Assembly: GCA_963797055.1 (NCBI GenBank)
Contig: CAWCOD010000005.1
Location: forward strand, 7,947 to 71,946
DNA from: an uncultured Holophagae bacterium
Lineage (GTDB): Bacteria > Acidobacteriota > Thermoanaerobaculia > Thermoanaerobaculales > Sulfomarinibacteraceae
DNA: 64,000 bases
Direction: 5' to 3'
The translations under genes and the position numbers were made by a program. Below the pieces are notes generated by a model. It searched no databases and had not been told where the DNA came from. It saw only the letters and a list, made by a program, of their open reading frames with translations. Shown here one piece after another: positions 2,031 through 38,515 of this stretch (the first letter of the stretch is position 1; every line of letters starts with the position of its first letter).

Positions 2031-2117
2031 CGATGAGCACGCAGATCAATTATTCGTCGAGAGAAATGGACCTGAAGTGACCAATAACGATCCGGCAATC
2101 AATGTGGAGACCCCGCT

Positions 2118-6051: not shown

Positions 6052-6343
6052 GTGGTTGAAGTGAAAGTCCCCAATGCCGCCGGGTTCGAAGCCCTGGTTT
6101 TAGTCCTATGGCCATGCCGTCAAGGCCTGGATTGGCTCAACCAAACAATCGGCTCTCCATGTGAAGCGCTTTGGCAACTCTGCGAGACCAGAGCGACCTG
6201 TTCATCACTGAGGTGCGGGACACCGAACGACGTATTTCTGACGAATGTGATTCCATTTTTCTTGACACGATACGGCATGTGTCGAGATCTGAAGAGCTTT
6301 CAATGGGCTGACCGCGCCCTATGACCCTTCAATTGGAGTAGAA

Positions 6344-7048: not shown

Positions 7049-7497
7049 ATAGTGGCCGGCGGTACGGGATGTTGATGGAGTATTCTAAAGCAGAGGTTTC
7101 AAAGGGGTTGCAGGATCCGGTTTGGGAGGATGTCACCAAACTCGAAAAATGGCTGGGCGTCAGCCAGTTATGGAGCCGGTAAGAGATTCATGACCAAACA
7201 TGGGAAGAAGATCCACCATCATCATGGAGTTCTAGGTCGATAGGGTCCCCGTGATTTTTCGTCAAATACGTCCTCGATGAACAGGATTTTCGGAGGGGAA
7301 TTCCTACGTTCGAAAGAGCCTCTTTTTTTGAAGCAATAAATTGATCTGTGATTGTCATGAATTTGGTCGTAAATAGAGAAGTAAACCGTAAGTATTTTTG
7401 TGACGTGGTTGAGGTAGTCAAAATGCGGAAAACTTTGATTTGGCAACGAACCGAAATGTCGCAAGTCGGTGTGAAATAGAACGAGACGCGATTAGAC

Positions 7498-9626: not shown

Positions 9627-9632
9627 GTCGTT

Positions 9633-10538: not shown

Positions 10539-10654
10539 TCAAAGACAATAGTGGACGTTTGCGATTCCATCGTGACACCATCCAATAACTGACCACTGGT
10601 TGTTTCGTCCGGATTGAACGGTTGATAGGCGGACGTAAATTGAATCGACAATAG

Positions 10655-11803
10655 ATGAAAATCCTCCAAGCCGTCAGTAGTGATCAGCGTCGAGGAGCGG
10701 AAGTGTTTGCGGGTGAGTTGTCGGATAGCCTTCGGGTTCGAGGGCACGACGTGCGGGTGGCCTCATTGAGGACATCTTCCTCGACCCCCAGGCTGACCGT
10801 TGATATGTCGTTTGGCGGCAACCACAGCGGCGTCCGCGGTTTCATTCAACCCGCGGGTTGGCTCAAGAAGCAAATCCGCTCGATGGATGCTGACGTGCTC
10901 CAAGCAAATGGCGGCTCGTCCGTCAAGTACGGTGCCATAGCAGCGTGGATCGACCCGCATCGTTCATGGAAATTGGTTTATCGAAATATTGGAGACTTGC
11001 GAGTCTGGCTCTCGTCGCCCTCGAAAAGGCTGTTCTACAAGGTGGCTGTTTGGCCGAAGATAGACGGTGTAGTGTGCGTGAGCCGTCAGGCGAGAGATGG
11101 TCTGCGCGCTGTGTACGGTGAACATGGTCCTCCGGTCGAGGTCATTTTTCAGGGTGTCGACGAGGCTGGATTGAGGCCGCGGTTGACGCGTCCAGAGGTG
11201 CGCCGGGCGTTGGCGACCTCTGATGATGAGATTGCTGTGGTCTGGGTCGGAGCCCTGAGCAGCGAGAAGGGACCGGACCGCGCCTTGCGGGTACTGTCCG
11301 AGGTGAGTCGAGGCGGGAAACCCGCTGTCCTCTGGATGGTTGGTGCTGGGCCGCTGAGCGAGGAGTTAAAAAATATCGCACGAGACCTCGACGTTGCAGA
11401 CTCGGTGCGGTGGGTTGGTTCTGTGGACGATGTGGGAGCGTATCTGCACGCGGCAGACATCTTCCTGCTGACGAGTGACACCGAGGGCATCCCGGGGGCG
11501 CTGCTCGAAGCAATGACAGTGGGGTTGCCGAGCATCGTCACCGACGTGGGGGGAATCTCTGAGGTTCTGGATGACGGCACGACCGGGTTCTTGACCCTCC
11601 CGGATGACGAGGAGGCCATGGTCGATCGGTTGTCACATCTGACGTCGGATGGGAAGCTTCGCGGACGAGTGGGGGCTGCTGCCCGGATCGCCGCTCTCAA
11701 GCGTTTCAACATGGACACCTGCGCCGAGGAGTACGAAGCCTTCTATCGGTCAATCCTCGACCGCTGGGCCAACGGTCAGACTGCGAGGCAAATCGGTTGC
11801 TGA
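10655..11803 (+). CDS. Glycosyltransferase family 4
   Basis: GT-B signature TSDTEGIPGALLEAMTVGLPSIVTDVGGISEVLDDGTTGF. Confidence 0.88.
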   Translation: MKILQAVSSDQRRGAEVFAGELSDSLRVRGHDVRVASLRTSSSTPRLTVDMSFGGNHSGVRGFIQPAGWLKKQIRSMDADVLQANGGSSVKYGAIAAWIDPHRSWKLVYRNIGDLRVWLSSPSKRLFYKVAVWPKIDGVVCVSRQARDGLRAVYGEHGPPVEVIFQGVDEAGLRPRLTRPEVRRALATSDDEIAVVWVGALSSEKGPDRALRVLSEVSRGGKPAVLWMVGAGPLSEELKNIARDLDVADSVRWVGSVDDVGAYLHAADIFLLTSDTEGIPGALLEAMTVGLPSIVTDVGGISEVLDDGTTGFLTLPDDEEAMVDRLSHLTSDGKLRGRVGAAARIAALKRFNMDTCAEEYEAFYRSILDRWANGQTARQIGC

Positions 11804-12974
11804 AGAGCGCACCATCTGACTCCCAGGGCGGGGGGTTGGAGGTTTTCCACCTGATCAAGGGATTGGGTCGGGGTGGGGCGGAGATGCTCCTGCCATCACT
11901 GATCCGGAGTGGCGGAGCGGAGCTTCAAATATTCGGTCGGGTACTTCCTTCCCTGGAAGGATGCACTGGTGCCCGAGCTGCAGGGCATGGGTGTTCAGGT
12001 CGAACGATTCACAGCCCGTGGTCCGGCTGGGATGATCGCCCGGGTGCCCGGCATCGCACGATTTCTTCGGCGAAACCGCGTTGATCTCGTCCACGCCCAT
12101 TTGCCGCTGGCCGGGGTGGTGGGGCGGCTGGCTGGCCGGATCGCCGGCGTGCCGGTCGTCTACACCGAGCACAACCTCCAGGAACGCTATCACCCATTGA
12201 CGAGAGGGTTGAACTCCAAAACCTGGAGCCTGCAGAGCGCTGTCGTGGCGGTGTCAGGCGAGGTGGAGGAGTCCGCGAGACGGCGGAACGGCTCGGTGGT
12301 GCCGATTCACGTGGTTCGGAACGGGATCGAAATTCCCCCGGTCGACAGCAGTCGCATCCTCCGGAAGAGGTGTCCGCGGCGAATTGGGGATCATGCCCGA
12401 CACTCCGGTGGTGGGCACCGTTGCCGTGTTCCGGACGCAGAAGCGACTGGATCGTTGGCTCGAAGCGGCCGCCGCGGTCAGACAGAGTGTGCCGGACGTG
12501 CACTTCCTGCTGGTTGGAGACGGCCCGGTCCGCCCCGAGCTCGAACGGCTGGCCGGCTCGCTTGGAATTTCCGACAGAGTGCACTTCGCCGGGCTCACGG
12601 ACGATGTTCCTCCCTACCTCGCCGCCATGGACATCTATCTCATGTCCTCCGAGTTCGAGGGCCTGCCGTTGGCCCTCCTGGAGGCCATGGCCGCCGGTCT
12701 CCCGGTTGCGGCCACCGCGGTCGGTGGCATCCCGGAGGTGATCGATAGCGATGCCGCAGGGATGCTGGTGGAGCCGGGCGACGTCGCCGGCCTCGCCGCG
12801 GCGACGGTTCGGCTGCTCGAGGACCGCGCGGTCGCCGGTTCGATCGGAGCAACCGGCCGTGAGCTGGTGGAGGAGAAATTCGGGGTCGAGCGGATGGCGC
12901 GCGAGCTCGAGGATCATGTACCTCGAGGTGGCGGGCCCGTCACGGGTCGGGTGATATGGAGATACGGCGCGTGA
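11797..12974 (+). pseudogene. Glycosyltransferase family 4, two frameshifts (near 11910 and 12370)
   Basis: ORF pieces in frames 1, 2 and 3 read through as one GT4: VFHLIKGLGRGGAEMLL / VDLVHAHLPLAGVVGRL / SEFEGLPLALLEAMAAGLPVAATAVGGIPEV. Confidence 0.8.
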
Positions 12975-13970
12975 CGCCGGATGACGAAGAGGCCGTTCTG
13001 GACCTGGTCGGCAGGGTCCTGACCACCGCATCGATCCCCAGGACCCCGGAGTTCTGGAGGTGGAAGCACGTGGATGGACCCTTCGGACCCTCACCCGGCC
13101 TTTTCGCCGAGGAAGACGGGAGGATCATCGGGCTTCGGATGTTCCTGAGCTGGCGATGGACCTCGAACGCGAACGTCCACCGGGCGGTCCGGGCGGTGGA
13201 CACCATTACCGCCCCCGAGGCGCGGGGCCGAGGGGTATTCACCCAGCTGACGCTGGATCTGGTCGAACAGATGAGAAACGAGGGCGTGTCCTTCGTCTTC
13301 AACACCCCCAACGAGCAGAGTCGTCCCGGCTACCTCAAGATGGGGTGGAGCGACGTCGCGCGGGTGCCGGTGTCGATTCGGCCGATGCGGCCGGTCGGCC
13401 ATGGTGCGCAAGAAGCTCGTGGGTGCCGACGAGCCGGGCGAGGTGGCGGCCCCCGCACCACCCGGAACCGATCCTGTTGACGATCTGTGCGCCGAACCGG
13501 AACTTCCTGCATTTCTCGACGGGCTCCACGAAGGTGAATCGAGGTACCACACCGAGCGAACGGTGGAGTACCTCCGATGGCGCTACGGCGCCATCCCGGG
13601 AATCGACTACCGGGCCCGGAGCCGGATCGAGGGCGGAGCGGGGGCGGTGGTGGTCTACCGTCACCGGGTTCGGGGACGAATGAGCGAACTCTCCTTTGCC
13701 GAGGTGTTGGTTAGCCCGGGCAGTAGAGGCGCCCGATTGGGCGCACGGCTTCTGCGTGAGGTGATGCGCGACTCTCCGGCGGACTACGCGGCGGCGTGTG
13801 CGGCAAAGGGGACCGGGGAGCGAGCAGCCCTCGTTCGTGCGGGGTTCCTGCCCATCGGTCTGCCGGGGCCGCGGTTCACCGTGAATCCGCTTGCAGGAGT
13901 CGCTGGATCCCCGATCCGTCTGGCGTGGTCCTCATGGCGGACGTCGGTTGGTGATCTCGAGCTGTTCTGA
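12956..13970 (+). pseudogene. GNAT family N-acetyltransferase, frameshifted near 13400
   Basis: Frame 2: MEIRRVTPDDEEAVLDLV...APEARGRGVFTQLTLDLVEQM (acetyl-CoA motif). The C-terminal half lies in frame 3 (13401..13970). Confidence 0.7.
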
Positions 13971-19243: not shown

Positions 19244-20376
19244 GTGATGGGTCGTATCTACCTCTCACCGCCGCACATGGGGGGCGAAGAGCTGGACCTG
19301 GTCCGGGAGACCTTCGAGTCCAACTGGATCGCCCCGCTGGGTCCCCAGGTGGACGCATTCGAGCGGGAGTTCGCCGACACGGTGCAGGTGCCCCACGCCG
19401 CGGCCCTGTCGTCGGGAACCGCCGGACTGCACCTGGCCCTGGAGCTGATCGGGGGTGGGCCGGGACGACACCGTGGTGTGCCCGACGCTGACCTTCTCGG
19501 CCACGGCCAACGCGATCACCTACGTGGGTGCCGAGCCCGGTTTTCGTGGACTCGAATGCCGCGACCTGGAATCTCGATCCGGAGTTGCTCCGTGAGGAGT
19601 TCGAAACGGCGGCGCGGTCGGGAACGCAACACGCGGCGGTGATCGCGGTGGATCTCTACGGCCAGTGCGCGGACTACGGTCGGATCGTCGAAGTCTGTGC
19701 CGAGTACGACGTTCCGCTGATCGAGGACGCGGCAGAGGGGCTCGGCGCGACGTGTGACGGGCGCCCGGCCGGCGGATTCGGCCGTTGCGGGGTGTTTTCC
19801 TTCAACGGCAACAAGATCATCACCACCTCCGGCGGCGGAATGCTGGTGTCGGATGACGAAGAGTTGGTGGCCAGGGCTCGGTACCTGGCGACCCAGGCCC
19901 GCGACCCCGCGCCCCACTACCAGCACTCGGCCATCGGCTACAACTACCGGATGAGCAATGTGCTGGCGGCCATCGGGAGGGGTCAACTCCGGGTGCTCGA
20001 CGATCGGGTCACCGCCCGGCGAGCCAACTTCGATCACTATCGTCGCGCGCTCGCCGATCTGCCGGGGGTGGAGTTCATGCCCGAGGCGCCGTACGGCCGG
20101 TGTACCCGATGGCTCACGTGTCTGACCATCGATCCCGGCACGGCGGGCGTGACTCGTGAAGATGTCCGACTCGCTCTCGAGGCGGAGGACATCGAAGCGC
20201 GGCCGGTGTGGAAACCGATGCATTTGCAGCCGGTGTTTCAAGGGTGTCGCGTGCGCGGAGGAGAGGTCGCTGCGGAGCTCTTCGGAAATGGTCTGTGCCT
20301 CCCCAGTGGTTCGAGCCTGACCGTCGACGACCGAGAGCGTGTGATTCGGATCTTCCGAAGCCGATTCGGAGACTGA
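19244..20376 (+). pseudogene. DegT/DnrJ/EryC1/StrS-family sugar aminotransferase (PglE-like), two frameshifts (near 19455 and 19527)
   Basis: IYLSPPHMGGEELDLVRETFESNWIAPLGPQVDAFE (frame 2) / DDTVVCPTLTFSATANAITYVGAEP (frame 3) / FVDSNAATW...FSFNGNKIITTSGGGML...YNYRMSNVLAAIG (frame 1). Confidence 0.88.
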
Positions 20377-20379: not shown

Positions 20380-22315
20380 ATGGGATCACAACGGAAGAAA
20401 ACCTCACGCCATACCTACGACCAACGGACGGGCGATCAGGACCCGAGACACCACGTTCCCTGGGAACGCCTCCTCAGTCGTCCGTTCCAGTATGTGATGG
20501 ATCTTCTGCGTTCTGACTCTCGCCTTCGTCGTGGCCTACCAGCTCCGCTTCGAGTTTCAGATCCCCGAATTCTACAGTCGCGCCATCCCGGTCCAGCTGC
20601 CGCTGGTGGTGCTCTTCCAGTTTGCCGCGCTGAATCTTGTGGGGGTCTACTCCTTCGTCTGGCGCTACGTGGGCATGTCCGAAATCAAGCCGTTCCTCAA
20701 GGCTGCGGTCTGGTCGGTGCTGCCGATCCTCGTGCTCCGTCTCCTGCTCCCCGAACACCTCGGCCTGCTGCGCATGCCCATCTCCGTGATCGTGACGGAC
20801 ACGATCTTCGGGTTCGGAGGGGTCCTGGGGCTCCGGGTCATTCGCCGGAGCCTGTACGAGCGATACGAGCGCAAGCTCCACGAGGAGAACGGGAGTGGCG
20901 AGAACGTGCCGGTGTTGCTCGTGGGCGCGGGGAGGGCCGGGCAATTGGCGGCCAAAGAGATTCAGGGCCGCGGGGACATGAATGTCGACATCGTGGGCTT
21001 TGTTGACGACGCAAAAAACAAGCAGGACACCGTCATCCAGGGCGTCCGCGTCCTCGGCATGACCCACGATCTCCCTCGTTTGGTGACCGAGCACCACATC
21101 GACCACGTGGTCATCACCATCGTCAAGGCCTCGAGAGCCCAGATCCGGCGTATCGTGCAGATCTGTGAGCAGATCCCGGTCAAGGCTCGGATCATCCCCG
21201 GGTTGTACGAGATCCTGTCGGGCGACGTCGAGATCAGTCGTCTCCAGGACCTCCAGATCGAGGACCTGCTGGGCCGCGACCAGGTCCACCTCGACGAAAA
21301 GGGGGTCCGGGAGTTTCTCGCGGGAAAGACGGTCATGATCACAGGAGCCGGTGGTTCCATCGGCTCGGAATTGGCCCGCCAGGCGGCACGGTTCGGTGTC
21401 GGGACCCTGCTGTTGGTGGAGCGGGCCGAGTTCGCGCTCTTCGACATCGATCGGGAGCTGCGCGAGGCCCGGCCCGATCTGTCCATCGTGCCGCTCGTGG
21501 CCAACGTCTCGAACGAGGCGCGTATGCGGCCCCTTTTCGAAGCCTATCGGCCGGCGGTGGTGGTGCACGCGGCGGCACACAAACACGTGCCGATGATGGA
21601 GTCCAACCCAAGCGAGGCGGTGAGCAACAACATTCTCGCGACGCGGCTTCTTGGCGAGCTCGCCGGTGAGTTCGAGGCCGAGGCCTTTATCCAGATCTCC
21701 ACCGACAAGGCGGTCAACCCGACATCGGTGATGGGTGCTTCGAAAAGGGTCGCAGAGTTGGTGGTCCAGGACCTCAATCCGCGCTACAGCACCCAATTCG
21801 TGTCGGTCCGTTTCGGCAACGTCCTGGGGTCGGCGGGCTCGGTGATCCCCATCTTCAAGGAGCAGATCCTCAAGGGCGGACCGGTGACCGTGACCGATCC
21901 GGAGATGACCCGCTACTTCATGACGATTCCGGAGGCGGCACAGCTTGTGCTCGAGGCCGGGGCCATCGGCCAGGGTGGCGAGATCTTCGTGCTCGACATG
22001 GGCGAGCCGGTCCGCATTCTCGATATGGCCAACGAGATGATCAGACTCTTCAACCTCAGACCGAACGAGGACATCGAGGTCGTCTTCACCGGGGTCCGTC
22101 CGGGAGAGAAGCTCTTCGAGGAACTTGCCGCTCTGGACGAGAACCACACCAGAACCCGACACCCTAAGATCTATGTCGGCACGATCAACACCTACCCGGA
22201 TCGTCAGGTTCGAGAGGCCCTGGAGAAATTCGAGGAGTTGGGCATCTTCGGCAGGGAGAAGGAACTGAGGCGATTTTTCAATGAGTTCCTGCCGGAGGCC
22301 ACAATCACCGAGTAG
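20380..22315 (+). pseudogene. Membrane-anchored NDP-sugar 4,6-dehydratase (CapD/PglF family), probable frameshift near 20495
   Basis: ORF 20531..22315 has TM helices, then VLLVGAGRAGQ and MITGAGGSIGSEL (NAD-binding), then ISTDKAVNPTSVMGASKR. The first TM helix WIFCVLTLAFVVAYQLRFEF extends upstream of an in-frame TGA, so the N-terminus probably starts at ATG 20380 in frame 1. Confidence 0.85.
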
Positions 22316-22465: not shown

Positions 22466-23272
22466 TCAGCGAAGGGACCGGAACAGACGGCTGACCCTCG
22501 TGCGGAGGCCGGAAAGAGGGGAAACCGGGAGACCGAGCCATTTGGTGATCCCGAGCTCCAAGGCTGTGTCGTATGGCGACTTCTTCCGGTCGAGCCGCCG
22601 GGCCATGGCAGGGGTGTCGTTCCAGGTACCGTCCTTGTTGGCGGCATATGCCGCGCCGCAGAACAGGACGGTCTCCACATCGGATGGATCCTGCGAACAA
22701 TCTGATGTCCGGGCGGCCACGAAATCCGGGGTGGGAATTCTCACCGTTCGCCCGCTCATCTCCACCTCGCCCGTCTTCTGCTCGAGAAGCCCGAAGAGCG
22801 ACCCCGCGCTTCCCCAGCGCACGCCGCGGTGACCCGGCAGGGCTTCGAAATAGGTGTCCTCTTCTGTCGGATCAACCATCGGCACCAGCAGGGCGCCCTC
22901 GGCCGAGACCAGATCCCACCGACCGAACACCGCCCTTCCGGCGGAGGATGGACTGAGCACGACGACCGGGACACCGCTCTTTGCCACCTCGGTGGCGATG
23001 TCCCCGTGCAGGAGGGCCGTTGCGTGTTCTAAAGATGCTGCGGCGCCCCGGCATTGGGACAGGTTCACGTTGCCGGGGATGTCCCACCCGGCGGCATCAT
23101 GGATCTCTCTGACCAGGTGCCATGCGATGCCGCGAAGAAAGGTCGGAGTGGCCGAGTCCTCCTCGAAGAGACGTGCGATGTGCAGGGCGCGGGAGACGTC
23201 CGGGCCCTCGGGCGCATGCCGCCGATGCCAAAGCTCGATGGTCGTCTGAATCGTGCCGATGCTCGCCGCCAT
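22466..23272 (-). CDS. Hypothetical protein (268 aa)
   Basis: Uninterrupted ORF divergent from 23387..24601. I recognise no motif with confidence. Confidence 0.5.
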   Translation of the reverse strand: MAASIGTIQTTIELWHRRHAPEGPDVSRALHIARLFEEDSATPTFLRGIAWHLVREIHDAAGWDIPGNVNLSQCRGAAASLEHATALLHGDIATEVAKSGVPVVVLSPSSAGRAVFGRWDLVSAEGALLVPMVDPTEEDTYFEALPGHRGVRWGSAGSLFGLLEQKTGEVEMSGRTVRIPTPDFVAARTSDCSQDPSDVETVLFCGAAYAANKDGTWNDTPAMARRLDRKKSPYDTALELGITKWLGLPVSPLSGLRTRVSRLFRSLR

Positions 23273-23386
23273 GGGGGCATGATAGCTCGATGGTCAGAGA
23301 TGGGGTAGCCCGAGCGTGATCCGGAATTCCAGTCGCCGGCGCGAACGATGGGATTTCGATGTCCAACCCGCGAGTGGTAGGCTTCG

Positions 23387-24601
23387 ATGGTGGGTACCCC
23401 AGTGCAATTTGATCCCCCCTCCGTGGAGCTGAGTGCCGAGCTGAACTGGGTGCTGGCGCGGGCCTTCGGCCCGTTGGATGTGACGTGCGATGCCCGGCTG
23501 GATGGGAACGGACTGATCGATGGGGCGAAACGGCTGGCGTTGGCGGCGCGGATCGGGGCACGAATTCCACCCGAGGTCCTCGCGACGGAGGTGGGCGAGG
23601 ACGTCGCCGCGGGGTTGCAGCAGGCCTACGGTGACGCGGCGGCCCTCGATCTCGCCTCCGCGGGCCTGTGTCGTCAGATCGCAGCACTGGGAAACGCCAT
23701 CGAAACACCGGTCATCGCGTTGAAGGGTGCGGCCCTGCGGGAGTCCGGTATCACTGCCGCGGGTTCACGGCAGGCGTGTGACGTGGATGTGGTGACCCTC
23801 GAGTCGCGGCTCGACGACCTGCACCAGGCCGTTGTGTCGGAGGGATACCGGGTGTCTGATATGCGGTCCGCCGAACATGAACTCGACGCCCTCTTCCATC
23901 CGTCCGGGTTGATGATCGAGATCCACCGGTATGTCAGAGGCGTTCGAGTCGTGGAAGGTCGATCCGCAACCGCGGATGATCTGCTCGACAACGACCTGTG
24001 TCGAAGCCGTGGAGACGATGGGAGTGGGCTGCTGGTGCCCGATCCCCACGTCGTGCTCGCCCATCTCCTGGTCCACGGCATCGCCCAACACGGCAATGCG
24101 CCATGGTCGTACCCGCTGCTGCGGTTGGTGGGGGATGTGCAGGACATGGGGTTGGACCGAGCAGGTTGGTCGACCTTCCTCGAGAGGGGTTGGCCGTGGA
24201 TCGCTCGGGATGTGAGTCGTGCGGAAGCCACTGCCGTGTGGGAGATCGGGTGCCGGCTCGGGATGGGGGAGTCACCCGACGCGGTCATCGCCGGCAATGA
24301 CCCGTGCGGTCTGGTGCTGGCCCACATGGTGGCGGGCACGTTGGATGAGGAGTATCAGCGATCACTGCGGATCGCGCATCTGGCGCGGCCGGTGGCCGGG
24401 ACCACCGTCGGCCGAACCCTCGTAAGAAAAGTGATGACGAATCTCTGGCTGCGGCGCGGTGAGATCGACCAGATCTACGGGCCTCAACCCAATGCGGGCC
24501 GGTATCTGGCGATGCGCCTGTGGCGGCCTGTGGATCTCGCGCTGCAGGCCGCGGGATCACTTCGGGCACGGTCGGCGATCAAAAAACGGAGCAATCGGTA
24601 G
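23387..24601 (+). CDS. Uncharacterised nucleotidyltransferase family protein (NTP_transf_5-like)
   Basis: VIALKGAALRESGI...RQACDVDVVTLESRLDDLHQAVVSEGY...LMIEIHRYV fits the KG-aal...R...D-D-llv...G-y...E-H pattern of that family. The family is known to co-occur with lasso-peptide kinases. Confidence 0.6.
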   Translation: MVGTPVQFDPPSVELSAELNWVLARAFGPLDVTCDARLDGNGLIDGAKRLALAARIGARIPPEVLATEVGEDVAAGLQQAYGDAAALDLASAGLCRQIAALGNAIETPVIALKGAALRESGITAAGSRQACDVDVVTLESRLDDLHQAVVSEGYRVSDMRSAEHELDALFHPSGLMIEIHRYVRGVRVVEGRSATADDLLDNDLCRSRGDDGSGLLVPDPHVVLAHLLVHGIAQHGNAPWSYPLLRLVGDVQDMGLDRAGWSTFLERGWPWIARDVSRAEATAVWEIGCRLGMGESPDAVIAGNDPCGLVLAHMVAGTLDEEYQRSLRIAHLARPVAGTTVGRTLVRKVMTNLWLRRGEIDQIYGPQPNAGRYLAMRLWRPVDLALQAAGSLRARSAIKKRSNR

Positions 24602-24609
24602 CGATAAAT

Positions 24610-24640
24610 AATTCGCAATTCGCAATTCGCAATTCGCAAT
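24610..24640. repeat. Heptamer tandem array (AATTCGC x4.5)
   Basis: aattcgc aattcgc aattcgc aattcgc aat read directly, 9 nt after the stop at 24601. Confidence 0.9.
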
Positions 24641-24723
24641 GGAAGACCCTTGGAAACGCCTGTGTTGAGGCTGCGATCAGCACCGATGCGTGACAGCGAA
24701 AGTGTTCATTGAAAATGCAAAGG

Positions 24724-24752
24724 TTGACGGATGTCACAAACTCCCCCAGTAT
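24724..24752 (+). promoter_or_regulatory. Possible sigma70-type promoter (TTGACG-17 nt-CAGTAT)
   Basis: ttgacg at 24724-24729 and cagtat at 24747-24752, upstream of the small ORF 24777..25004. Pattern match only. Confidence 0.25.
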
Positions 24753-24776
24753 TGTGTGGTCTGATGGTGTGGAGGA

Positions 24777-25004
24777 ATGGGAGGGCGCACCGTGAGCGAG
24801 CTGCATCTCAGTGATCTTGCAGCGGATCTGGAGAGCTATATGGCCGAGCTGTCCGCCCGTCGGGCGTCCGCCTGCAGGGTGGGGCCGGAGAATCCCTTTG
24901 ACGGCCGCGACACTCCGGATCTCTTCACCATTCTGTCCGAGCCGTGGAGCGACACCGAGGTCGAGGAGTTCCTCGAGCTCGTGAAGGTGCCGGAAACCCT
25001 GTAG
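24777..25004 (+). CDS. Small acidic hypothetical protein (70-75 aa)
   Basis: ORF with a possible GTG start at 24792 preceded by gggaggg. It is followed by a strong hairpin terminator. No recognisable family. Confidence 0.4.
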   Translation: MGGRTVSELHLSDLAADLESYMAELSARRASACRVGPENPFDGRDTPDLFTILSEPWSDTEVEEFLELVKVPETL

Positions 25005-25032
25005 CCTCATTCCCGGGAAAAAAAGTTGAACG

Positions 25033-25058
25033 AGCCCCGATCATCGGGGCTGTTTTCT
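25033..25058. terminator. Hairpin terminator between convergent genes (likely bidirectional)
   Basis: agccccga-tca-tcggggct (8-bp stem) followed by gttttct. An A7 run at 25018-25024 lies on the other side. Confidence 0.7.
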
Positions 25059-25075
25059 GTAGAGGACACCAAGCA

Positions 25076-25103
25076 GTTACACGTTACACGTTTAACTTTC
25101 AAC
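25076..25103. repeat. Heptamer tandem array (GTTACAC type, 4 units)
   Basis: gttacac gttacac gtttaac tttcaac. It abuts and overlaps the stop codon of the ABC exporter at 25099. Confidence 0.75.
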
Positions 25104-26931
25104 TTCCTCCCGTTTCCATCTGCTCCCTCCACGCCCTGGCGTAGCGCCCATTCCGCGCCAGGAGTTTCTGATGGTTGCCCGACTCCACGATGCGTCCCTC
25201 GTCCAAAACGTGGATGATGTCGGCGCGCATGGCGGTGGTGAGGCGGTGCGAGATGATGATGGCGGTGCGGCCCTCGGCCACCAGGCGAAATCGCCGAGTC
25301 CATTCGATTTCGGACCACGAGTCCATCGCGCTGGTGGGTTCGTCGAGCAGGATCACCGGCGCCTCCCGAACAGCCGCACGGGCCAGGGCGATCCTCTGCC
25401 ATTCGCCCACCGACAACTCGGTTCCGCCGGTGAACCAGCTGCCGAGCAGGGTATCGAGCCCGTTGGGCAGTCGCCCTATGATGGCGTCGGCGCCGGCCAA
25501 CGACACGGCATCGTCGAGACAAGCGCTCGACGCGTTGTTGCCCACTGAGCCCAGCTCGATATTGCGCCGGACGGTCTCCGAGTAGTGCATGGGTTGCTGG
25601 AACAGGACGGTGACCAACCGCCGCGCCTCGGCCAGACCCATGTGTTTGAGGTCGCGCCCGCCGATTTCGATGAATCCCTCCTCGGGATCGTAGAGTCGGC
25701 ACAACAGCTTGAAGAGGGTGCTCTTGCCGGCGCCGTTGACTCCGAGCAGGGCGGCGATCTGGCCCGGCGCAACCTCCAGGTCGAAACCATCGAAGACGAG
25801 CCGATCCGAGCTGGGGTACCGGAAGGTCAGGTCGCGGAAAACAACACCTGGAGGCGACTCGGTCGGCTGCGGCTGTGGCTCGTCGGGATCCGAGATCTCC
25901 GGTTCCACGTCAAGAAATTCGAAGAGGTTTTCCAGGAACATGATGTTCGTGACGACCTGGCCGACGGTGGCAAGCAGGGTCCGCATGAGTTTCTGGCCCT
26001 GGTTGAACGCCTGGAAAAACATGGCCAGGCTGCCGAGAGTTGCGGCGCCGCGCAGCGTGCGTACCAGCATCCACGCCACCGCGGCGCCCATCACCACGAG
26101 GGCGGATGCCCCGGCCGCCATCTCGGCGAGGGCCTGAGAACGGGCGAGATCAATCTGTTCACCCCTGAGCCGCCGCCGGAGGTCGCGGAAGCGGGATGAG
26201 AACGTGCCGGCGAGGTCGAAGAGACGGATTTCGGGTGCCGGGTCCCGGTTGGTGAGGAGCCAGTCATAGTAATAGGAGCGCCGAATGTCGGATGTCGCGC
26301 CCACTCGCCAGCGGTGCTGCCGAATCGCGAACCGCAGCACCACCATGAAAACCGGAACCGCGCTCAGGACAAGGGCCAACGGCACCCACCAGCCGAATTG
26401 GAAGAGTACTCCCGCCATTGCCACCAGGGTGATGCCGTTTTGGAGCAGACTGCCCAGACCCTCCACCAGCGCGACGGGACGGCCGTAGGCGTCAATGCGC
26501 GCCCGGTGGAGCTGATCGTGGTATTTCGGAGTCTCGTAGTACGCCAGATCCACCGCGGTGGCCCGGTTGTGAATGAGTTTGGACAGGTGATCCGCCACGA
26601 GTTCCGACTGGGCGGTCCGCACCCACCGGGTCGCGGCCTGTAGGAGATCGGAAACAAGCATCAGGGCAGCCATGAGCAGGGCGAGCAGCAGCGGCTGTCG
26701 GATAGCGGCCCAGCTCCCACCGGCATCCACCGCCGCCACGAGACTGTCCACCAGGAACTTCGTAAGCGCGACGATGGCCACCGGCAAAATGCCCTGGACA
26801 ACCAGGAGAAGGACCCAGGCCACCGTCCACGCCCCGCCGGCCTCCCACACCAGACGGAGCGCCCGTGGGATATGGGGAAGCTGAGCGCGGACCTTGTTCA
26901 GCTTGGAGGTGAGTTCGCCGCCTTCGGGCAT
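25099..26931 (-). CDS. ABC transporter, fused permease/ATP-binding exporter (McjD-like position in the lasso module)
   Basis: N-terminal 6-TM ABC membrane domain. Walker A LLGVNGAGKSTLFKLL, signature ELSVGEWQRIALARA and Walker B VILLDEPTSAMD. Confidence 0.9.
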   Translation of the reverse strand: MPEGGELTSKLNKVRAQLPHIPRALRLVWEAGGAWTVAWVLLLVVQGILPVAIVALTKFLVDSLVAAVDAGGSWAAIRQPLLLALLMAALMLVSDLLQAATRWVRTAQSELVADHLSKLIHNRATAVDLAYYETPKYHDQLHRARIDAYGRPVALVEGLGSLLQNGITLVAMAGVLFQFGWWVPLALVLSAVPVFMVVLRFAIRQHRWRVGATSDIRRSYYYDWLLTNRDPAPEIRLFDLAGTFSSRFRDLRRRLRGEQIDLARSQALAEMAAGASALVVMGAAVAWMLVRTLRGAATLGSLAMFFQAFNQGQKLMRTLLATVGQVVTNIMFLENLFEFLDVEPEISDPDEPQPQPTESPPGVVFRDLTFRYPSSDRLVFDGFDLEVAPGQIAALLGVNGAGKSTLFKLLCRLYDPEEGFIEIGGRDLKHMGLAEARRLVTVLFQQPMHYSETVRRNIELGSVGNNASSACLDDAVSLAGADAIIGRLPNGLDTLLGSWFTGGTELSVGEWQRIALARAAVREAPVILLDEPTSAMDSWSEIEWTRRFRLVAEGRTAIIISHRLTTAMRADIIHVLDEGRIVESGNHQKLLARNGRYARAWREQMETGGS

Positions 26932-26943
26932 GGCCGGAGGGTA

Positions 26944-28041
26944 TCAGAGTCGAGAGGCGAGCGATTCCGGTGCGCGCGCCTCATTGCAGAGAGTATTGAG
27001 GGTGATCTCGGGTTCCTCCAGCATGTCGCGCCCGAGCCGGACGTCGAATCCCCGACAACTCTCGGCGAGAGTGGCCAGCACCGACAAAGCTCCTGCTCGT
27101 GCTCGGGGGTACCTTGGCGACAGGGTCAGTAGCGAGGCCGAAGATACAAGGGCCACCAGGGCCTCCTGTGTGGACAACGGTCGGATTCTGCTGGCGCGCA
27201 AGCGACGGTCGATCCCCAGCTGCCACAGTTGGTCCGGAATCAGTTCCGCGGCGAGGTTGTCGGGACACGACAGGCGATCGAGATAATGAGCGTCAACACC
27301 CTCGGTGGTCTTGCTTCTCAGCCCATCGGGCAACACCGCCAGGGTGGCGTCCCGGAAGCTGAAGTACGCCCTGAAAGGACCAAGCTGGACTCGGCCGTCG
27401 CATGGGCCCGCGAGGACGGAATCGTCCGACGCGACCCGCCCTCCGGATCGGATGGCGGCGGCGGTGATCGTTGATTTTCCGGCCCCGCTCCCGCCCACTC
27501 CAAGAACGGTATCGCGGCCGATCTGGAATGCTACTGCGTGGAGGCAGATCACACCGAGCCGACCCAGGGCGAGACCCATGGCGGTCTCCATGAGATCGGG
27601 GGACGGGCCGTCTTCCAGCCCAGCGGTCGGGGTCCATTCCACTTGGATGATCGGAGATTCCCGGGTCAGCCGGATCAGGCCGGTCGGGAATTGGAGCTCA
27701 TCGCCTCCACGGATCACGCGGTGTAGCGGGTGGACGGATCCAACGCGGGGTGGACTTGGAAGGGGACGACTGGTGGCTTGCGCACGTTGGACGGCCAGCA
27801 CGGCCGTACGCGGACCCGCAGGGTCCGCCGGGGCATGAACCACGGAGGTTTCCCACAATCGGGCCAGACGGTCGGCCTGAGCCGCGGTCAGTCCACGAAC
27901 TCTGACCGGGGTCCGGGGGCGTGTCCCGGTGAACCGGAAGTCGACGACCGTGGATTCAGCCCTCTGCGTCACCGGAATCCTCGTTGAAAGGTTGTTTGCG
28001 GGACGATTGCCATCTCTGTCGAACGCGATTATTGAGATCAA
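26944..28041 (-). CDS. HprK-related P-loop kinase (lasso-peptide kinase-like)
   Basis: VICLHAVAFQIGRDTVLGVGGSGAGKSTITAAAIRSGGRVASDDSV resembles the HPr kinase C-terminal domain. It lies directly downstream of the cyclase and the small ORF. Confidence 0.65.
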   Translation of the reverse strand: MISIIAFDRDGNRPANNLSTRIPVTQRAESTVVDFRFTGTRPRTPVRVRGLTAAQADRLARLWETSVVHAPADPAGPRTAVLAVQRAQATSRPLPSPPRVGSVHPLHRVIRGGDELQFPTGLIRLTRESPIIQVEWTPTAGLEDGPSPDLMETAMGLALGRLGVICLHAVAFQIGRDTVLGVGGSGAGKSTITAAAIRSGGRVASDDSVLAGPCDGRVQLGPFRAYFSFRDATLAVLPDGLRSKTTEGVDAHYLDRLSCPDNLAAELIPDQLWQLGIDRRLRASRIRPLSTQEALVALVSSASLLTLSPRYPRARAGALSVLATLAESCRGFDVRLGRDMLEEPEITLNTLCNEARAPESLASRL

Positions 28042-28099
28042 AGCTCATCAGCCGATGCGATGGTCGGCTGGCGCTTCCGCATTCTGGAATCAGGGCGTT

Positions 28100-28300
28100 C
28101 TACTTTCCGCTGCTGCCAAGACCGCCGCTGCCAAGCTTCGTTCTGCCACCCGACGGATTGTCAGGATTGTCGTCCACGGTCAAGGCATGAACGATGGAGG
28201 CAATTCGGCGCACCGTGACGGTTGGACGCTGATAGGAGCGCAGAATATGGCTGCGATCCGTGTCGTGTGTGCACTGCTGAGACATTCTGTCGACTTTCAT
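28100..28300 (-). CDS. Candidate lasso-peptide precursor (66 aa), non-canonical core
   Basis: ATG at 28300 with GGAG 9 nt upstream. Product: MKVDRMSQQCTHDTDRSHILRSYQRPTVTVRRIASIVHALTVDDNPDNPSGGRTKLGSGGLGSSGK. It has a YxxPxV leader-like motif and an ALT-V junction, and it sits between the cyclase and the kinase on the same strand. Confidence 0.4.
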   Translation of the reverse strand: MKVDRMSQQCTHDTDRSHILRSYQRPTVTVRRIASIVHALTVDDNPDNPSGGRTKLGSGGLGSSGK

Positions 28301-28376
28301 GATGACGAACTCCGGCCCAATCGTTAGGAACACTGTTCGACTGAGTTGTCTGAACCGTTAATGTAACATACTGCAC

Positions 28377-30077
28377 TCAAGAAGTGCAACTTCTTTCCCT
28401 TATGTAAACCTCAGCAACGTTCAAAAGCATGACGTTGAAAAGCGTTGCTTCGTCGTGATCACGGATCCGAGACACCTGTTGCATCCAATCGGGGTCAACG
28501 ATTTTCTGTCCCACGAGATTCCACGAAGACATTTCGGATTCAGCGACGACCTTGCGCGCGGTTGCTTGAAAAACGGGGCCATAGCCCGTCTTGTCCAGTC
28601 GATCAAGAACCGCTGGAGGCGCCAGACCCGCTCCCGCCAGTCGCAGAAGGTGTTTGTTGCGGATGCCGTGGGTGAGAGCCCGGCCCGGAACCCTCAGAGA
28701 GAATTCGATGACGTCGAGATCCATGAAGGGGCATCGGCGCTCCACGCCATATCTGGCCATGACCTGCTCGCCGCTTTCGAACTCATGCCAATTCTGAGTG
28801 AGGATCAGTTTGCGGAGCAGGGAGCGGCGCGACCGACTTCGGCGTTGTCGTCCGTCGAGTGCTGCGATTCGTCCGTCGAAATCGACGAACGGCCGTTTCC
28901 GCTCGGGGTGGAGCCATTCCAACGGCCCGGGAGATGTGGAAGTGAAACGGACGCGGCGCAAAACGGGTTGAATGAGGTGGCTGTGAATGAACCGGAATCG
29001 CGTCTGCCCGGGAACAAGCTGAAATCTGAAGAGGTCACGGACGAGTTCGAATAGATTTCCGGAGAGAAGGTCGTCGGCCAGGTAGGAGGTGGTACCCCCG
29101 AGCCACTCGTCGGCGCCTTCGCCGACGAGATCGATGCGGCGACCGTCTCGAGAAAGCCGCCGGGCGTGTTGTTCTGCGTAGGGCAACCCGCCGGAGTGGA
29201 GACCATCCACTTCGGCCGCGAGTCGCGCGACGTCGGGCCGGAGGTCGTCGGTTCTGAAGTCCATCAGCACGCCGTCCGTGCCGGTGAAACGATGGGTTTC
29301 CAGAATCCGGTCGGTTTCGTCGCACGCCAGACCCGGAAAGACGTGGGAGTAGGCTCGGCCCTGCGCCGCCACCGGATCGCCCCCTCGGATGCGTCGAGCC
29401 ACCAAACCCCACAGAACCGTGGAGTCGATACCACCGCTGAGACTGACCGCGAACGGAACATCCTCGAGGCATCGGTCCAAGGCACGATCGAGGAGAGCTT
29501 CGAGTTCGGCGACGAGTTCAGCCACGTCGTATCGTCGTCCACCCTCTGCCGGGGGCTTCCAAAAAGCCTCGCTGCGCGCCTCGGATCCGTCCGCCTCGGC
29601 CGGGAATTCGACGGCTGTGTTTGGTTGCAGGCGGGCAACCTGTCGTACAAGCGTCAGACACGGATCTTCGTGCTCGATGAGCATCTCCTGGACAAGCCCG
29701 TCCACATCGATCTCCGGACTGATTTCGGCCCCCGAAATCACCTGTCGGACCTCGGTGGCGATAAACCTGCGGTCGCCGGTTGAACCGTGGAAGAGTGGAC
29801 GGTGGCCGATGACGTCGCGAACCGCGAGCAGGGTGCGCAGCCTGCGGTCGTAGATGAGCATGGAGAATTCTCCGCGGAGCTTCGAGAAGAGGGCTCGGCC
29901 GAGATCCTCATAGGCCACGGCGACCCGGGCGGCATGGGAGGCATCGTCGGGGAATGACCAGTGGTGGCTCGAAGCGAGCTCGGCCCAGTTGCCGATGAAC
30001 CCGTGAACGGCCACCGTCCAGTTCCCTGCGGTGGCAAGCGACGCGTCCCCATTGTTGGCCTGGATCCCAAGGGCCAC
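28377..30077 (-). CDS. Asparagine-synthetase-like protein, probable lasso-peptide cyclase (C protein)
   Basis: AsnB-like fold with the ATP-pyrophosphatase motif FAVSLSGGIDSTVL. The N-terminus MALGIQ lacks the Cys2 nucleophile of glutamine-dependent Asn synthetases. Confidence 0.75.
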   Translation of the reverse strand: MALGIQANNGDASLATAGNWTVAVHGFIGNWAELASSHHWSFPDDASHAARVAVAYEDLGRALFSKLRGEFSMLIYDRRLRTLLAVRDVIGHRPLFHGSTGDRRFIATEVRQVISGAEISPEIDVDGLVQEMLIEHEDPCLTLVRQVARLQPNTAVEFPAEADGSEARSEAFWKPPAEGGRRYDVAELVAELEALLDRALDRCLEDVPFAVSLSGGIDSTVLWGLVARRIRGGDPVAAQGRAYSHVFPGLACDETDRILETHRFTGTDGVLMDFRTDDLRPDVARLAAEVDGLHSGGLPYAEQHARRLSRDGRRIDLVGEGADEWLGGTTSYLADDLLSGNLFELVRDLFRFQLVPGQTRFRFIHSHLIQPVLRRVRFTSTSPGPLEWLHPERKRPFVDFDGRIAALDGRQRRSRSRRSLLRKLILTQNWHEFESGEQVMARYGVERRCPFMDLDVIEFSLRVPGRALTHGIRNKHLLRLAGAGLAPPAVLDRLDKTGYGPVFQATARKVVAESEMSSWNLVGQKIVDPDWMQQVSRIRDHDEATLFNVMLLNVAEVYIRERSCTS

Positions 30078-30179
30078 GCCGTGTTCGATATGGTGTTCGG
30101 GGGCACCGCGATAGGGAGACCGGCGTCAGCATCCGGTGAAGCCGCAACGGCAGCTCGGGGTCCCCGCTTTCACCGATGA

Positions 30180-30671
30180 TTGCTACAATCGCGCCCATGC
30201 CGTAAGGCAAGTATATGGAAGTACGAACAGGATCAGCCACGCTTTCGTGACCCCGGAGATGTCGTTCTCTTTTTGAGGGCGCTGCCTCTGGCTCGGCGCG
30301 CCCAGAGGGTGGGAGGGACTCCGTTGCCGGAGGTTGTGGCCGCCATGGGCGGGGTGGCTGGACGGGAGAAGGAGGCCCGGCGGGTGCAGGTCGCGGCCGG
30401 CCGGGCATGCTCGGCGTACGGTCGGCTCTTCGGCGGACTCGACTCGTGTTTGACCCGTTCGTTGGTGGCTGGCGCCATGTTGTCGGAGGCGCACGACGTC
30501 GTCCTGCACGTAGGGTTCCGGCCCGGCTCGGACGATGTGCCCGTGGATGGCCACGCGTGGCTGACGGTGGACGGGGCGCGTCTGGACGCGATTCCCCCGG
30601 ACGATCTGGACCGTCCATACGCCGGGGTCCTTGAGATTCCCTTCGGGGTGCAGAGAAGGAGCGGAGGATGA
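30180..30671 (+). CDS. Lasso-peptide B2 protein (transglutaminase-like leader peptidase)
   Basis: SCLTRSLVAGAMLSEAHDVVLHVGF...VDGHAWLTVDG is the Cys...His signature of McjB-C-terminal/B2 proteins. The start is uncertain (TTG 30180, or ATG 30214 plus a shift). Confidence 0.75.
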   Translation: MLQSRPCRKASIWKYEQDQPRFRDPGDVVLFLRALPLARRAQRVGGTPLPEVVAAMGGVAGREKEARRVQVAAGRACSAYGRLFGGLDSCLTRSLVAGAMLSEAHDVVLHVGFRPGSDDVPVDGHAWLTVDGARLDAIPPDDLDRPYAGVLEIPFGVQRRSGG

Positions 30672-30968
30672 GCAGGATCGAGGAGCTGTCACGGTTGTTG
30701 GCATCGGACGAGGAATTCACGCAACAGAAATTGTCCGATTCGAACCGGAGTGATCCTGGACGTGGACTCTCTCCAGGTCTTTTCCCTCAATCCCACCGGG
30801 CAGTTCCTGGTGGATTGTCTGCGGCAGGGTGTGACCACCGAAAGCGGTTTGGTGGAGCGACTGGTGGGCGAGTTTGACGTCGGGGAGGCAACGGCGAAGG
30901 AGGACGTCGCCGGCTTCCTGGGGGAGCTTGAGACGTACTTGATCGAAAAGCGGATCAAAAAGGGCTGA
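30668..30968 (+). pseudogene. PqqD-family protein (lasso B1 / RRE), probable frameshift near 30748
   Basis: The ATG at 30668 overlaps the B2 stop (ATGA). Frame 2 gives MSRIEELSRLLASDEEFTQQKLSDSNRS, then frame 3 gives ILDVDSLQVFSLNPTGQFLVDCLRQGVTTESGLVERLVGEFDVGEATAKEDVAGFLGEL (PqqD pattern). Alternatively it is a short 72-aa protein from GTG 30750. Confidence 0.7.
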
Positions 30969-30974: not shown

Positions 30975-31050
30975 CATTGCGAATATTCGAAATTCGGAAT
31001 TCGACCCTACCCAACCCCCTCTATTCACTATTCACTATTGACTATTTGCT
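30975..31050. repeat. Composite repeat: heptamer array (ATTCGAA type), C-box, heptamer array (TATTCAC type)
   Basis: cattgcgaatattcgaaattcggaattcga / ccctacccaaccccctc / tattcac tattcac tattgac tatttgc. Confidence 0.85.
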
Positions 31051-32870: not shown

Positions 32871-32946
32871 TGGAGCGGGCAACGGGATTCGAACCCGCGA
32901 CTCTCAGCTTGGGAAGCTGATACTCTACCAACTGAGTTATGCCCGC
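32871..32946 (-). tRNA. tRNA-Gly (anticodon CCC), CCA encoded
   Basis: The reverse complement GCGGGCATAACTCAGTTGGTAGAGTATCAGCTTCCCAAGCTGAGAGTCGCGGGTTCGAATCCCGTTGCCCGCTCCA folds by hand into a cloverleaf with a 7-bp acceptor stem, anticodon loop TTCCCAA and T-loop TTCGAAT. Confidence 0.93.
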
Positions 32947-33583: not shown

Positions 33584-33820
33584 CGAATTCCGGATTGCAG
33601 ATTTCATATTGCAGATTGCATATCCCCCCGCCCACCTGGGAAGGTTGCGCTGATCGGGCGTGACAACCTTGACGACGTTGTAGCCAGGTCGAATTTTGAA
33701 TTCTCAATTTTTAATGTTGATTTCCTCCCTCTCCCAACCAGAGGACCGGGGGGACGGGTGGGAATTCAAAATTTAGAATTCTCGATCCAGCGTTCAACGT
33801 GTAACGTTGAACGTCAAAAC
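33584..33820. repeat. Dense composite intergenic repeat region (several heptamer arrays, C/G boxes, GATCGGGCGTG box)
   Basis: gattgca gatttca tattgca gattgca / ccccccgcccacctggg / ctgatcgggcgtg / gaattttgaattctcaattt / ctccctctcccaacc...ccggggggacgggtggg / aattcaaaatttagaattc / gttcaacgtgtaacgttgaac. Confidence 0.85.
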
Positions 33821-33869: not shown

Positions 33870-35056
33870 ATGACGACCTTGAACCATTTCTCCCGTCAGC
33901 TCCCGAATTTTTTGGAGGAGTTGCGGACGATCGTGGAAATGGACTCGCCCACCGGTGACGTAATCGTGCGCCCAGCGGGTCGCCGCCGTGTTGCAGGGTT
34001 GGTTCTCCGAGGTGGCATCGGTTGAATCCGAACCGATCAGCGGCTACGGACCGATGATCAGGGTGCGTCGACCGGGGACGGGGACAAAGGTTTTCCTGTC
34101 GGCCCACTACGACACGGTTTGGTCGGTGGGTCGTGGGCGGAGCCCTGGGTCGAGCGGGATGGCAGGATCTACGGCCCCGGGGTCTACGACATGAAGGCGG
34201 GCCTGCTGTTCATTCTCTTTGCCTTGCGGTGGCTCCGCCAAACCGATCGCGATGCTCCCGATCTCGAGATTCTGCTCAATCCCGACGAAGAGATGGGTTC
34301 CATGGGTTCGCGGGCCAGCATCGAGGAGGCCGCAGCCCTCGCCGACTTCGCTCTCGTGCTGGAGCCGGCCAGCCCGGCGGCCACCTCAAGCTGGAGCGCA
34401 AGGGTTCCGGTGAGTACGTCGTCGAGGTGAAGGGTCATCCGGCTCATCAGGGCGTCCAGCCCGAGGCTGGTGTCAACGCGATCATCGAGGCCTCTCATCA
34501 GATATCTCGCCATGCTCGAACTTCAGGATCTCGCGCGAGGAACCACGGTTGGTCCGAATATCATCGCCGGGGGCACGGTGAGCAACACGGTGGCCTCCGC
34601 GGCGAAAATCACGGTGGATGTGCGGGCCTGGACCCGAGACGAACAGCGACGGCTGGATCGTGGGCTGCGCGAACTCGCTCCCAATCTCGCCGGGGCCGAG
34701 ATCACCCTCCGCGGCGGTTGGAACCGCCCCCCGATGGAGTCGTCCCCGGCCTCCGTTGAGCTCTTCCTGCGGACCCGGCAGATTGGGCTGGACCTCGGAC
34801 TGGATCTCCAACGGGTGGCGTGGGGGGGTCTTCGGATGCCAATCTCGCTGCGGCTGTGGGCGTGCCCACGATGGATGGCTTCGGCCCGGTGGGCAACGGC
34901 GCCCACCAGTTCAGCGAACACATCGTGGCCGACCAGTTCCCGGTTCGGCTGGCGTTGTTCTCGGAACTGGTCGCGTCGCTGGCGATACCGCCCGAGGATT
35001 GGCTCAGCCAGGCCGCACAGCGCGGCTTCCGCCACAGAGGCCACGAGAACAGTTGA
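33870..35056 (+). pseudogene. M20-family metallopeptidase (carboxypeptidase G2-like), about 5 frameshifts
   Basis: Family motifs are scattered over frames 3,1,3,2,3,2: MTTLNHF...EMDSPTGD / FLSAHYDTVW / GPGVYDMKAGL...NPDEEMGSMGS / LKLERKGSGEYVVEVKGHPAHQGVQPEAGVNAI / IIAGGTVSNTVASAAKITVDVRAW / GGSSDANLAAAVGVPTMDGFGPVGNGAHQFSEH. Confidence 0.75.
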
Positions 35057-38413: not shown

Positions 38414-38515
38414 CCCGCCACCCGACAATTTGCGAATTACGAATTACGAATTGCAGATTGCAGATTACAAATTACAAATTACAGATTGCAGATTGCGGAT
38501 TCCCCCGCCCACCCG
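38414..38515. repeat. Longest heptamer array (11 units, GAATTAC/AGATTGC) flanked by two direct C-boxes
   Basis: cccgccacccg / aatttgc gaattac gaattac gaattgc agattgc agattac aaattac aaattac agattgc agattgc ggattc / ccccgcccacccgg. Confidence 0.9.

Follow-up and report, generated by a model that had tools for sequence, protein, structure and literature searches.

The stretch analyzed here, referred to as the window, comprises 64,000 nucleotides of a contig from an uncultured Holophagae bacterium (CAWCOD010000005.1, assembly GCA_963797055.1). Between positions 22466 and 30968 it carries a group of genes that we read as a lasso-peptide module with split B proteins, a kinase, and a nucleotidyltransferase, and we assign this reading a probability of about 0.8. 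The genes for an asparagine synthetase-like cyclase (C), a precursor peptide (A), an HprK-like kinase (K), and an exporter (D) lie in the order C-A-K-D on the minus strand. The genes for a leader peptidase (B2) and a recognition element (B1) are transcribed divergently from them on the plus strand, and the nucleotidyltransferase gene N and the gene for a 268-residue protein (X268) occupy the far end of the module. The gene order recurs in three related loci (L001, L055, and L107). An earlier interpretation made from the letters alone (the sequence-only reading) had already noted the divergent B genes. Open reading frame (ORF) listing and hidden Markov model scans recovered every gene that it had named, each in the predicted family with the exception of the kinase. 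Its description of the region stood in outline but missed three frameshifts and the X268 gene at the left end.

The C gene (28377-30198, minus strand, with a +1 frameshift near 30126) encodes a protein with an Asn_synthase domain (106 bits), a GATase_7 domain, and the PP-loop motif SGGIDS. An asparagine synthetase-like protein without Cys2 had been claimed, with its start at 30077. This start proved to be internal, the true gene reaching to 30198; the lack of the nucleophile was borne out, as the N terminus after frameshift correction reads MGAIVAIIGE with Gly2 in place of Cys2. Among N-terminal nucleophile amidotransferases, Cys2 is expected in any working glutamine amidotransferase. Gly occupied residue 2 in 10 of 10 full-length homologues aligned. 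The protein falls in a clade of its own, with about 18 members that are 33-71% identical; with the L001 homologue it shares 71%. Against the model of the exosortase-linked XrtA/PEP-CTERM amidotransferase (TIGR03108), C reached 76-79 bits, far under the cut-off of 816.9.

The 163-residue B2 protein (30180-30671, plus strand) is a leader peptidase of the transglutaminase-core Cys protease type. It passed both the Transglut_core3 model (PF13471; 45.1 bits, cut-off 26) and the NCBIfam model lasso_biosyn_B2 (NF033537; 39.7 bits, cut-off 33), and its Cys (in SCLTRS) and His (in GHAWL) lined up with those of known B2 proteins in an alignment. Its start region is disturbed by a one-base insertion. B1 (30668-30968, plus strand, with a +1 frameshift near 30740) matched PqqD (PF05402; 50 bits, cut-off 23.4); its best NCBIfam match was lasso_PqqD_Strm at 38-41 bits, under the cut-off of 70 for that model. 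The earlier assignment of a PqqD-like protein to this span was right as to family, but the span contains a one-base insertion and is not a single ORF. The locus thus encodes a Cys2-less PP-loop cyclase, a transglutaminase-core protease, and a PqqD-type recognition element of peptides that are ribosomally synthesized and modified post-translationally, the traits by which lasso clusters are recognized. The sequence-only reading had proposed the lasso B2 peptidase and had named, as the outcome that would speak against a lasso pathway, failure of B2 in its model together with placement of C in the exosortase families. Neither was observed.

A small ORF between C and K had been pointed out earlier, and exactly there lies a conserved lasso-type precursor gene, A (28100-28300, minus strand, 66 codons). 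Its predicted leader is MKVDRMSQQCTHDTDRSHILRSYQRPTVTVRRIASIVH and its predicted core is ALTVDDNPDNPSGGRTKLGSGGLGSSGK. Homologues occupy the same position between C and K in L001, L055, L056, and L057, and a GGAG Shine-Dalgarno-type site precedes the gene in the window as well as in L001. Comparison with L055 gave 13, 9, and 25 substitutions at the first, second, and third codon positions, and 19 of the 38 changed codons were synonymous. Because of this third-position bias, and because half of the changed codons were synonymous, A is taken to be translated in the 66-residue frame. Two other ORFs in the gap between C and K, one of 71 residues on the minus strand and one of 132 residues on the plus strand, were rejected, as only the 66-residue frame was conserved with third-position bias. 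RNA structure or an attenuator was sought in the spacer between A and K, and none was significant (z-scores of +0.31 and -0.05).

In more distant members of the C clade (L002, L037, L109, L110, L006, L062, and L107/L108), a small ORF likewise follows C immediately. With these, 11 distinct precursor sequences from 13 loci (the window, L001, L055, L056/L057, L002, L037, L109, L110, L006, L062, and L107/L108) were available for comparison. In all 11, the leader contains YxxPx[VIL], position Y+14 (counted from the motif Tyr) is Val or Ile, and either Y+23 or Y+24 is Asp or Glu; in most, a bulky residue stands at about core position 15. Lasso precursors are recognized by a YxxPxL leader motif and by Asp or Glu at one of core positions 7-9. 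The window precursor has YQRPTV as its leader motif and Asp at Y+24, a residue that is invariant across relatives, and no other ORF in the 64 kb combines such a leader with Asp at that position. When metagenome loci were collected with the kinase as seed, a matching small ORF was present in 16 of 47.

Cleavage after Y+15, that is, after SIVH, is the reading consistent with these sequences; it would leave Val or Ile at position -2 and a ring of 8 or 9 residues. For the window, the predicted core consists of ALTVDDNPD, with a putative ring from Ala1 to Asp9, followed by NPSGGRTKLGSGGLGSSGK. Position -2 is then Val rather than Thr, a Val/Ile exception documented in PMC10368454. With this predicted cut, Thr, Thr, Thr, and Ser stand at core position 3 in the four window-like precursors, and Thr or Ser is found at that position also in L006 and L107. 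The window precursor ends in GSSGK; in its relatives the last residue is Gly, Pro, Asn, Val, Asp, or Ala, and never Ser. A cut after LTV would place Thr at -2 and make residue 1 Gly in three relatives; it was rejected, as no Asp or Glu would remain at positions 7-9 and the would-be position 1 of the window is Asp, not Gly. Moving the cut one residue beyond SIVH, so that the ring would run from Leu1 to Asp8 and Tyr would take the canonical position -17, was kept as a minor alternative; it would put His or Asn at -2 and, in distant relatives, Pro or Asn at position 1.

The kinase gene K (26944-27972, minus strand) most likely begins at the GTG codon at 27972, which is also the start in the public gene call P0070, and encodes 342 residues. 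Its family profile matched solved HPr kinase structures (E = 8e-9). The catalytic motif, H-x14-G-x2-G-x-GKS-x15-DD, is that of the lasso kinase BsfK, with identical spacing. His145, Gly160, Gly165, Lys166, Ser167, Asp183, and Asp184 were invariant and aligned with the catalytic residues of BsfK, for which His148, Gly163, Lys169, Ser170, Asp186, and Asp187 were shown to matter (PMC10368454). The HprK-like P-loop protein of the sequence-only reading was upheld by profile and motif only, with its start most likely at 27972, and the curated cut-offs were missed. D (25099-26931, minus strand) was confirmed as a fused ATP-binding cassette (ABC) exporter with a transmembrane and a nucleotide-binding domain (ABC_tran, 99.8 bits; MsbA-like). 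Compared with the ABC genes of two distant lasso loci, L006 and L062, it shows 52-55% identity and is thereby better conserved than C.

N (23387-24601, plus strand) likewise proved to be the nucleotidyltransferase that had been proposed for it, a tailoring enzyme of the PsmN/BsfN type (NTP_transf_5, PF14907; 62.5 bits, cut-off 31.2) with a DVDV motif of the metal-binding type. Homologues occur in the related lasso loci L006, L062, L055, and L109. A PsmN-type protein is needed for hexose addition to the phosphate of pseudomycoidin (PMC6993621). X268 (22466-23272, minus strand), divergent from N, is its recurrent partner: it adjoins N in L002, L037, L055, L058, L059, and L109, and the pair is always on the side of PglF. 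No Pfam or NCBIfam model matched X268, no match was obtained among PDB sequences, and only 41 relatives were found among 1.84 billion cluster representatives. An AlphaFold model (mean predicted local distance difference test score of 88.9) gave nucleotidyltransferase-like folds as the top PDB hits, weakly so (E of 0.065, template modeling scores of 0.36-0.45). The second Asp of the nucleotidyltransferase motif is not conserved, and a profile comparison between X268 and N gave no significant similarity (probability of 0.2%). The pairing of N with X268, a protein that lacks annotation and whose fold resembles nucleotidyltransferases only weakly, is mildly new. A 75-residue acidic ORF (24777-25004, plus strand) lies between N and D. 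It has an 88% identical counterpart at the same position in L055 and is absent from the other loci compared; family searches with it were without a match, and its membership in the module is uncertain. A hairpin at 25033-25051 follows it.

As the sequence-only reading had stated, the module lies beside a pgl-like sugar operon. The upstream polysaccharide locus contains a Polysacc_synt_3 flippase, several glycosyltransferases of families GT4 and GT2, a deacetylase, and PglD-, DegT-, and PglF-like genes, and a terminator-like hairpin at 22345, the terminator noted before, closes it. Lasso modules with a divergent C (24-35% identity to that of the window) adjoin PglF in L109, L002, L037, L059, and L062. 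In L062 (positions 255-13030 of Ga0209017_10000364) the module is inserted between DegT-PglC and PglF, in the order DegT, PglC, then N, B1/B2, C, A, a 241-residue ORF, K, a sulfotransferase, and the ABC gene, then PglF. L109, L002, and L037 share the order PglC-PglD-DegT-PglF-porin-X268-N-K-C-A; B1, B2, and D were not detected near C within the available flanks of these three loci. There is a published precedent in that pseudomycoidin can form without B1 and B2. The occurrence of related modules beside pgl-type sugar genes, or in one locus between them, is mildly new. Because divergent modules repeatedly adjoin PglF and the L062 module sits between DegT-PglC and PglF, the adjacency suggests, without proving it, that the lasso module is coupled to nucleotide-sugar supply. 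Carried further, N and X268 might transfer a bacillosamine-like amino sugar, made by the PglF, PglE, and PglD homologues, onto the phosphorylated Thr3 of the lasso peptide. We consider this specific proposal improbable. If it were true, the cluster would make a phosphoglycosylated lasso peptide that drew its sugar from a cell-surface glycan pathway.

The same adjacency can be read the other way, namely that N and X268 belong to the neighboring glycan pathway and that the lasso module proper consists of B1-B2-C-A-K-D only. In L058, the pair stands with NeuB, a CMP-sugar synthetase, a GT2 glycosyltransferase, a genuine Cys2 asparagine synthase, and PglF, and the 11 kb available there are without lasso genes; the edge of the contig, however, is right by X268, and the sequence immediately past that edge could contain lasso genes. 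The lasso modules of L107 and L108 have neither N nor X268 and carry a PrmA-like methyltransferase instead, and the invariable location of the X268-N pair on the PglF side points in the same direction. On the other hand, NTP_transf_5 genes are established in lasso clusters (psmN and bsfN), and in L006 and L062 N stands directly beside B1/B2 without X268. We judge the assignment of N and X268 to the glycan pathway to be unlikely and retain both as members of the lasso module. L107 itself (positions 5021-7192 of JAOQIB010003940.1, NCBI assembly GCA_025490975.1) is a related module with the same AI-2E/bactofilin/pseudopilin surroundings as in the window. The presence of a PrmA/PRMT-like methyltransferase between its K and C, with neither N nor X268, suggests that the tailoring genes are interchangeable.

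Next to be weighed is the state of the genes. With L001, an intact syntenic relative on an 8.8-kb ENA contig, as reference, three single-base insertions were located within about 620 bp, in C, at the start of B2, and in B1. The insertion near 30126 cuts off the first 24 codons of C (MGAIVAIIGESGDPELPLRLHRML), the full gene being 28377-30198. The probable native start of B2, ATG 30214, is out of frame because of the insertion near 30220, at the second codon, and the listed ORF stays open only by way of the upstream TTG at 30180. The span of B1 measures 301 nucleotides with the insertion near 30740, and the only intact ORF in it is 30750-30968. After removal of one base each, C has 606 residues and B1 has 99, both collinear with their homologues. 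Such a cluster of insertions, affecting the divergent start region of C and B2 as well as B1, is what would be expected if the module were a decaying, non-functional remnant with real frameshift mutations. Downstream of each shift, however, the frames are open and conserved down to family-consensus residues. Unrelated flanking genes are broken at similar density: DegT twice, and PglF and the M20 peptidase once each, while the T2SSG pseudopilin of the window is without its N terminus. Relatives from the same kind of metagenome-assembled genome project, with contigs named in the style "contig_NNNN" (L055, L037, and L002), are likewise full of frame breaks. As both the flanking genes and these relatives are frame-broken, the three insertions are most likely errors of long-read assembly, and decay appears improbable. 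The ORF-based annotation of the window is unreliable. Relative to short-read relatives, the broken frames outside the module lie at 19253-19538, 20502-20510, about 33100, and 34373-34829.

Several observations besides the three insertions weigh against a lasso pathway. Both C and K stayed under the curated NCBIfam cut-offs for lasso or HprK-related models, and K also under that of Pfam: C gained 88 bits with the only NCBIfam lasso cyclase model that it matched (cut-off 525), less than the 148 bits with a generic AsnB model, and K gained 13.7 bits with Hpr_kinase_C (cut-off 33.3) and 24.6 bits with HprK_rel_A (TIGR04352; cut-off 200). Gly was found at Y+16, core position 1, in 7 of the 11 precursors, these being the seven distant ones; that position is Ala in the window and Arg, Gln, or Lys in L055, L056, and L001. 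The usual pattern of lasso precursors is Thr at -2 and Gly, Ala, Ser, or Cys at core position 1. First residues such as those of the window-like precursors are unusual among lasso peptides, which leaves the cleavage site uncertain, and the leader Tyr stands at -16 instead of -17. Expression of the related bsf cluster in heterologous hosts did not yield a mature lasso peptide (PMC10368454). The lasso product of the window cluster is itself predicted; none has ever been observed. The scores of K and C, and the position of the module within a polysaccharide locus, could be taken to mean that a kinase/PqqD/amidotransferase system of exopolysaccharide loci acts here on a non-peptide or non-lasso substrate, an alternative that the sequence-only reading had itself raised; it is very improbable and no real rival, as B2 passes the lasso-specific model, C is without the glutaminase Cys and far from the PEP-CTERM amidotransferase model (79 against 817 bits), a precursor with lasso leader and ring-acceptor Asp is conserved, and 16 of the 47 kinase-linked loci have a lasso-type precursor.

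With the lasso-peptide module as the preferred reading, a pathway may be proposed by analogy with characterized systems. B1 would bind the YQRPTV motif in the leader of the 66-residue precursor. K would phosphorylate the linear precursor, most likely at core Thr3, the position that BsfK uses. B2 would then cut after SIVH, leaving Val at -2, and C would adenylate Asp9 and join it to the amine of Ala1, which would close a ring of nine residues. The tail of 19 residues would thread this ring, and Arg15 would probably serve as plug. N, perhaps jointly with X268, might add a sugar to the phosphate, and D would export the product of an active cluster.

On this reading, the class of lasso clusters with kinase and nucleotidyltransferase is extended to an uncultured, probably Thermoanaerobaculia-like lineage of Acidobacteriota; the relative L037 is labelled Ca. 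Sulfomarinibacteraceae, Acidobacteriota. A small coherent precursor family is added, with Val or Ile at -2, a non-Gly residue 1, and a long Gly-rich tail, of which the combination of non-Gly residue 1 and Gly-rich tail is mildly new. Its members could serve to probe the tolerance of B2 and C at positions -2 and 1. The adjacency to pgl genes and the pairing of N with X268 lead to a concrete hypothesis on the sugar donor and on the chemistry of PsmN/BsfN-type enzymes.

Downstream of the module follow genes for an AI-2E transporter, tRNA-Gly, a bactofilin, a pseudopilin, and the M20 peptidase. The tRNA-Gly gene (CCC; 32871-32946, minus strand), flanked by those for bactofilin and pseudopilin, is overlapped by spurious long ORFs of the six-frame translation. 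An Rfam scan of the window returned one tRNA only, and a promoter scan of the window gave no more sites than expected by chance. Short AT-rich tandem arrays of heptamers (units such as AATTCGC, ATTGCAG, TTCGAAT, GATTACA, and AGTGAAT; 2-7 copies) were seen at about 20 intergenic sites, among them 1438-1483, 24610-24640, 25076-25092, 30980-31046, 33593-33623, 38435-38501, 51688-51723, 57197-57226, and 63091-63126. All arrays that were checked lay between genes, and some of them bracket the lasso module. The 20-mer AATTCGCAATTCGCAATTCG occurred 15 times with up to three mismatches, against an expectation of 0.01. A further observation concerns L059 (JGI 3300021183, Ga0216253_10003004), where an ORF of 134 residues at 3200-3604 on the minus strand combines a lasso-type leader and core (…QPYTRPKLTRYGRIAALVQ/GGSFTPSPD…) with a C-terminal Peptidase_S74 intramolecular-chaperone, that is, self-cleaving, domain (23.6 bits, cut-off 22). 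Its neighbors are a Cys-less Asn-synthase homologue, a PrmA-like methyltransferase, PqqD fragments, N, and two copies of X268. It would be unusual for a lasso precursor to carry such a self-cleaving follower.

Lasso clusters with kinases, nucleotidyltransferases, and sulfotransferases have already been described. The architecture found here is a published one, lasso clusters are abundant, and the finding is useful rather than surprising. Precursors with Ile or Val at -2 were reported in Bradymonadales, Acidobacteriaceae, and Sphingomonadales (PMC10368454). The predicted Acidobacteriaceae and Sphingomonadales clusters (Supplementary Fig. S14 of that work) are kinase-associated, and the Acidobacteriaceae examples come from the same phylum as the probable source of the window. 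Their precursors, however, end in AY[EQ][AS]DE, the core sequence is unrelated to that of the window, and their B2 is only about 26-30% identical.

The analogy to the paeninodin and pseudomycoidin clusters of Firmicutes (pade and psm), on which the sequence-only reading had relied, held for the C-A-K order, the split B1/B2, the ABC exporter, the HprK-like kinase acting on the precursor, and the PsmN-type nucleotidyltransferase needed for hexose on the phosphate. It failed at the acceptor site: the kinases of those systems target a C-terminal Ser, whereas the window precursor ends in Lys. Moreover, their leaders have Thr at -2, and all their genes are co-directional.

The bsf cluster of Bradymonas sediminis FA350 encodes BsfA, B1, B2, C, D, K, and N (Duan et al. 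2023, PMC10368454). The residue phosphorylated by BsfK is Ser3, in a precursor whose position -2 is Ile and whose last residue is not Ser (PMC10368454). The window module contains the same seven gene types, namely A, split B1 and B2, C, D, an HprK-like K, and an NTP_transf_5 N. In both, the -2 residue is aliphatic and beta-branched instead of Thr (Ile in BsfA, Val in the window), the acceptor Asp stands 24 residues past the leader Tyr, and the kinases agree in catalytic motif and spacing. Neither precursor has a C-terminal Ser, and both have a hydroxyl residue at core position 3. The two systems differ in that sequence identity is very low (36% for K, over 47 residues only, with B1 and B2 barely detectable by BLAST), and the ring is predicted to comprise nine residues in the window (Ala1-Asp9) as compared with eight in bsf (Gly1-Asp8). 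The leader Tyr is at -16 in the window and at -17 in bsf, and the predicted core has 28 residues with a Gly-rich tail as against 21. Furthermore, the B genes of the window are divergent from C-A-K-D, X268 is additional, the module adjoins pgl-type sugar genes, and its source is probably an acidobacterium rather than a member of the Bradymonadales. Because of the Thr or Ser at core position 3 and the lack of a C-terminal Ser, the closest studied system is the bsf cluster of Bradymonas, and the paeninodin/pseudomycoidin type fits less well.

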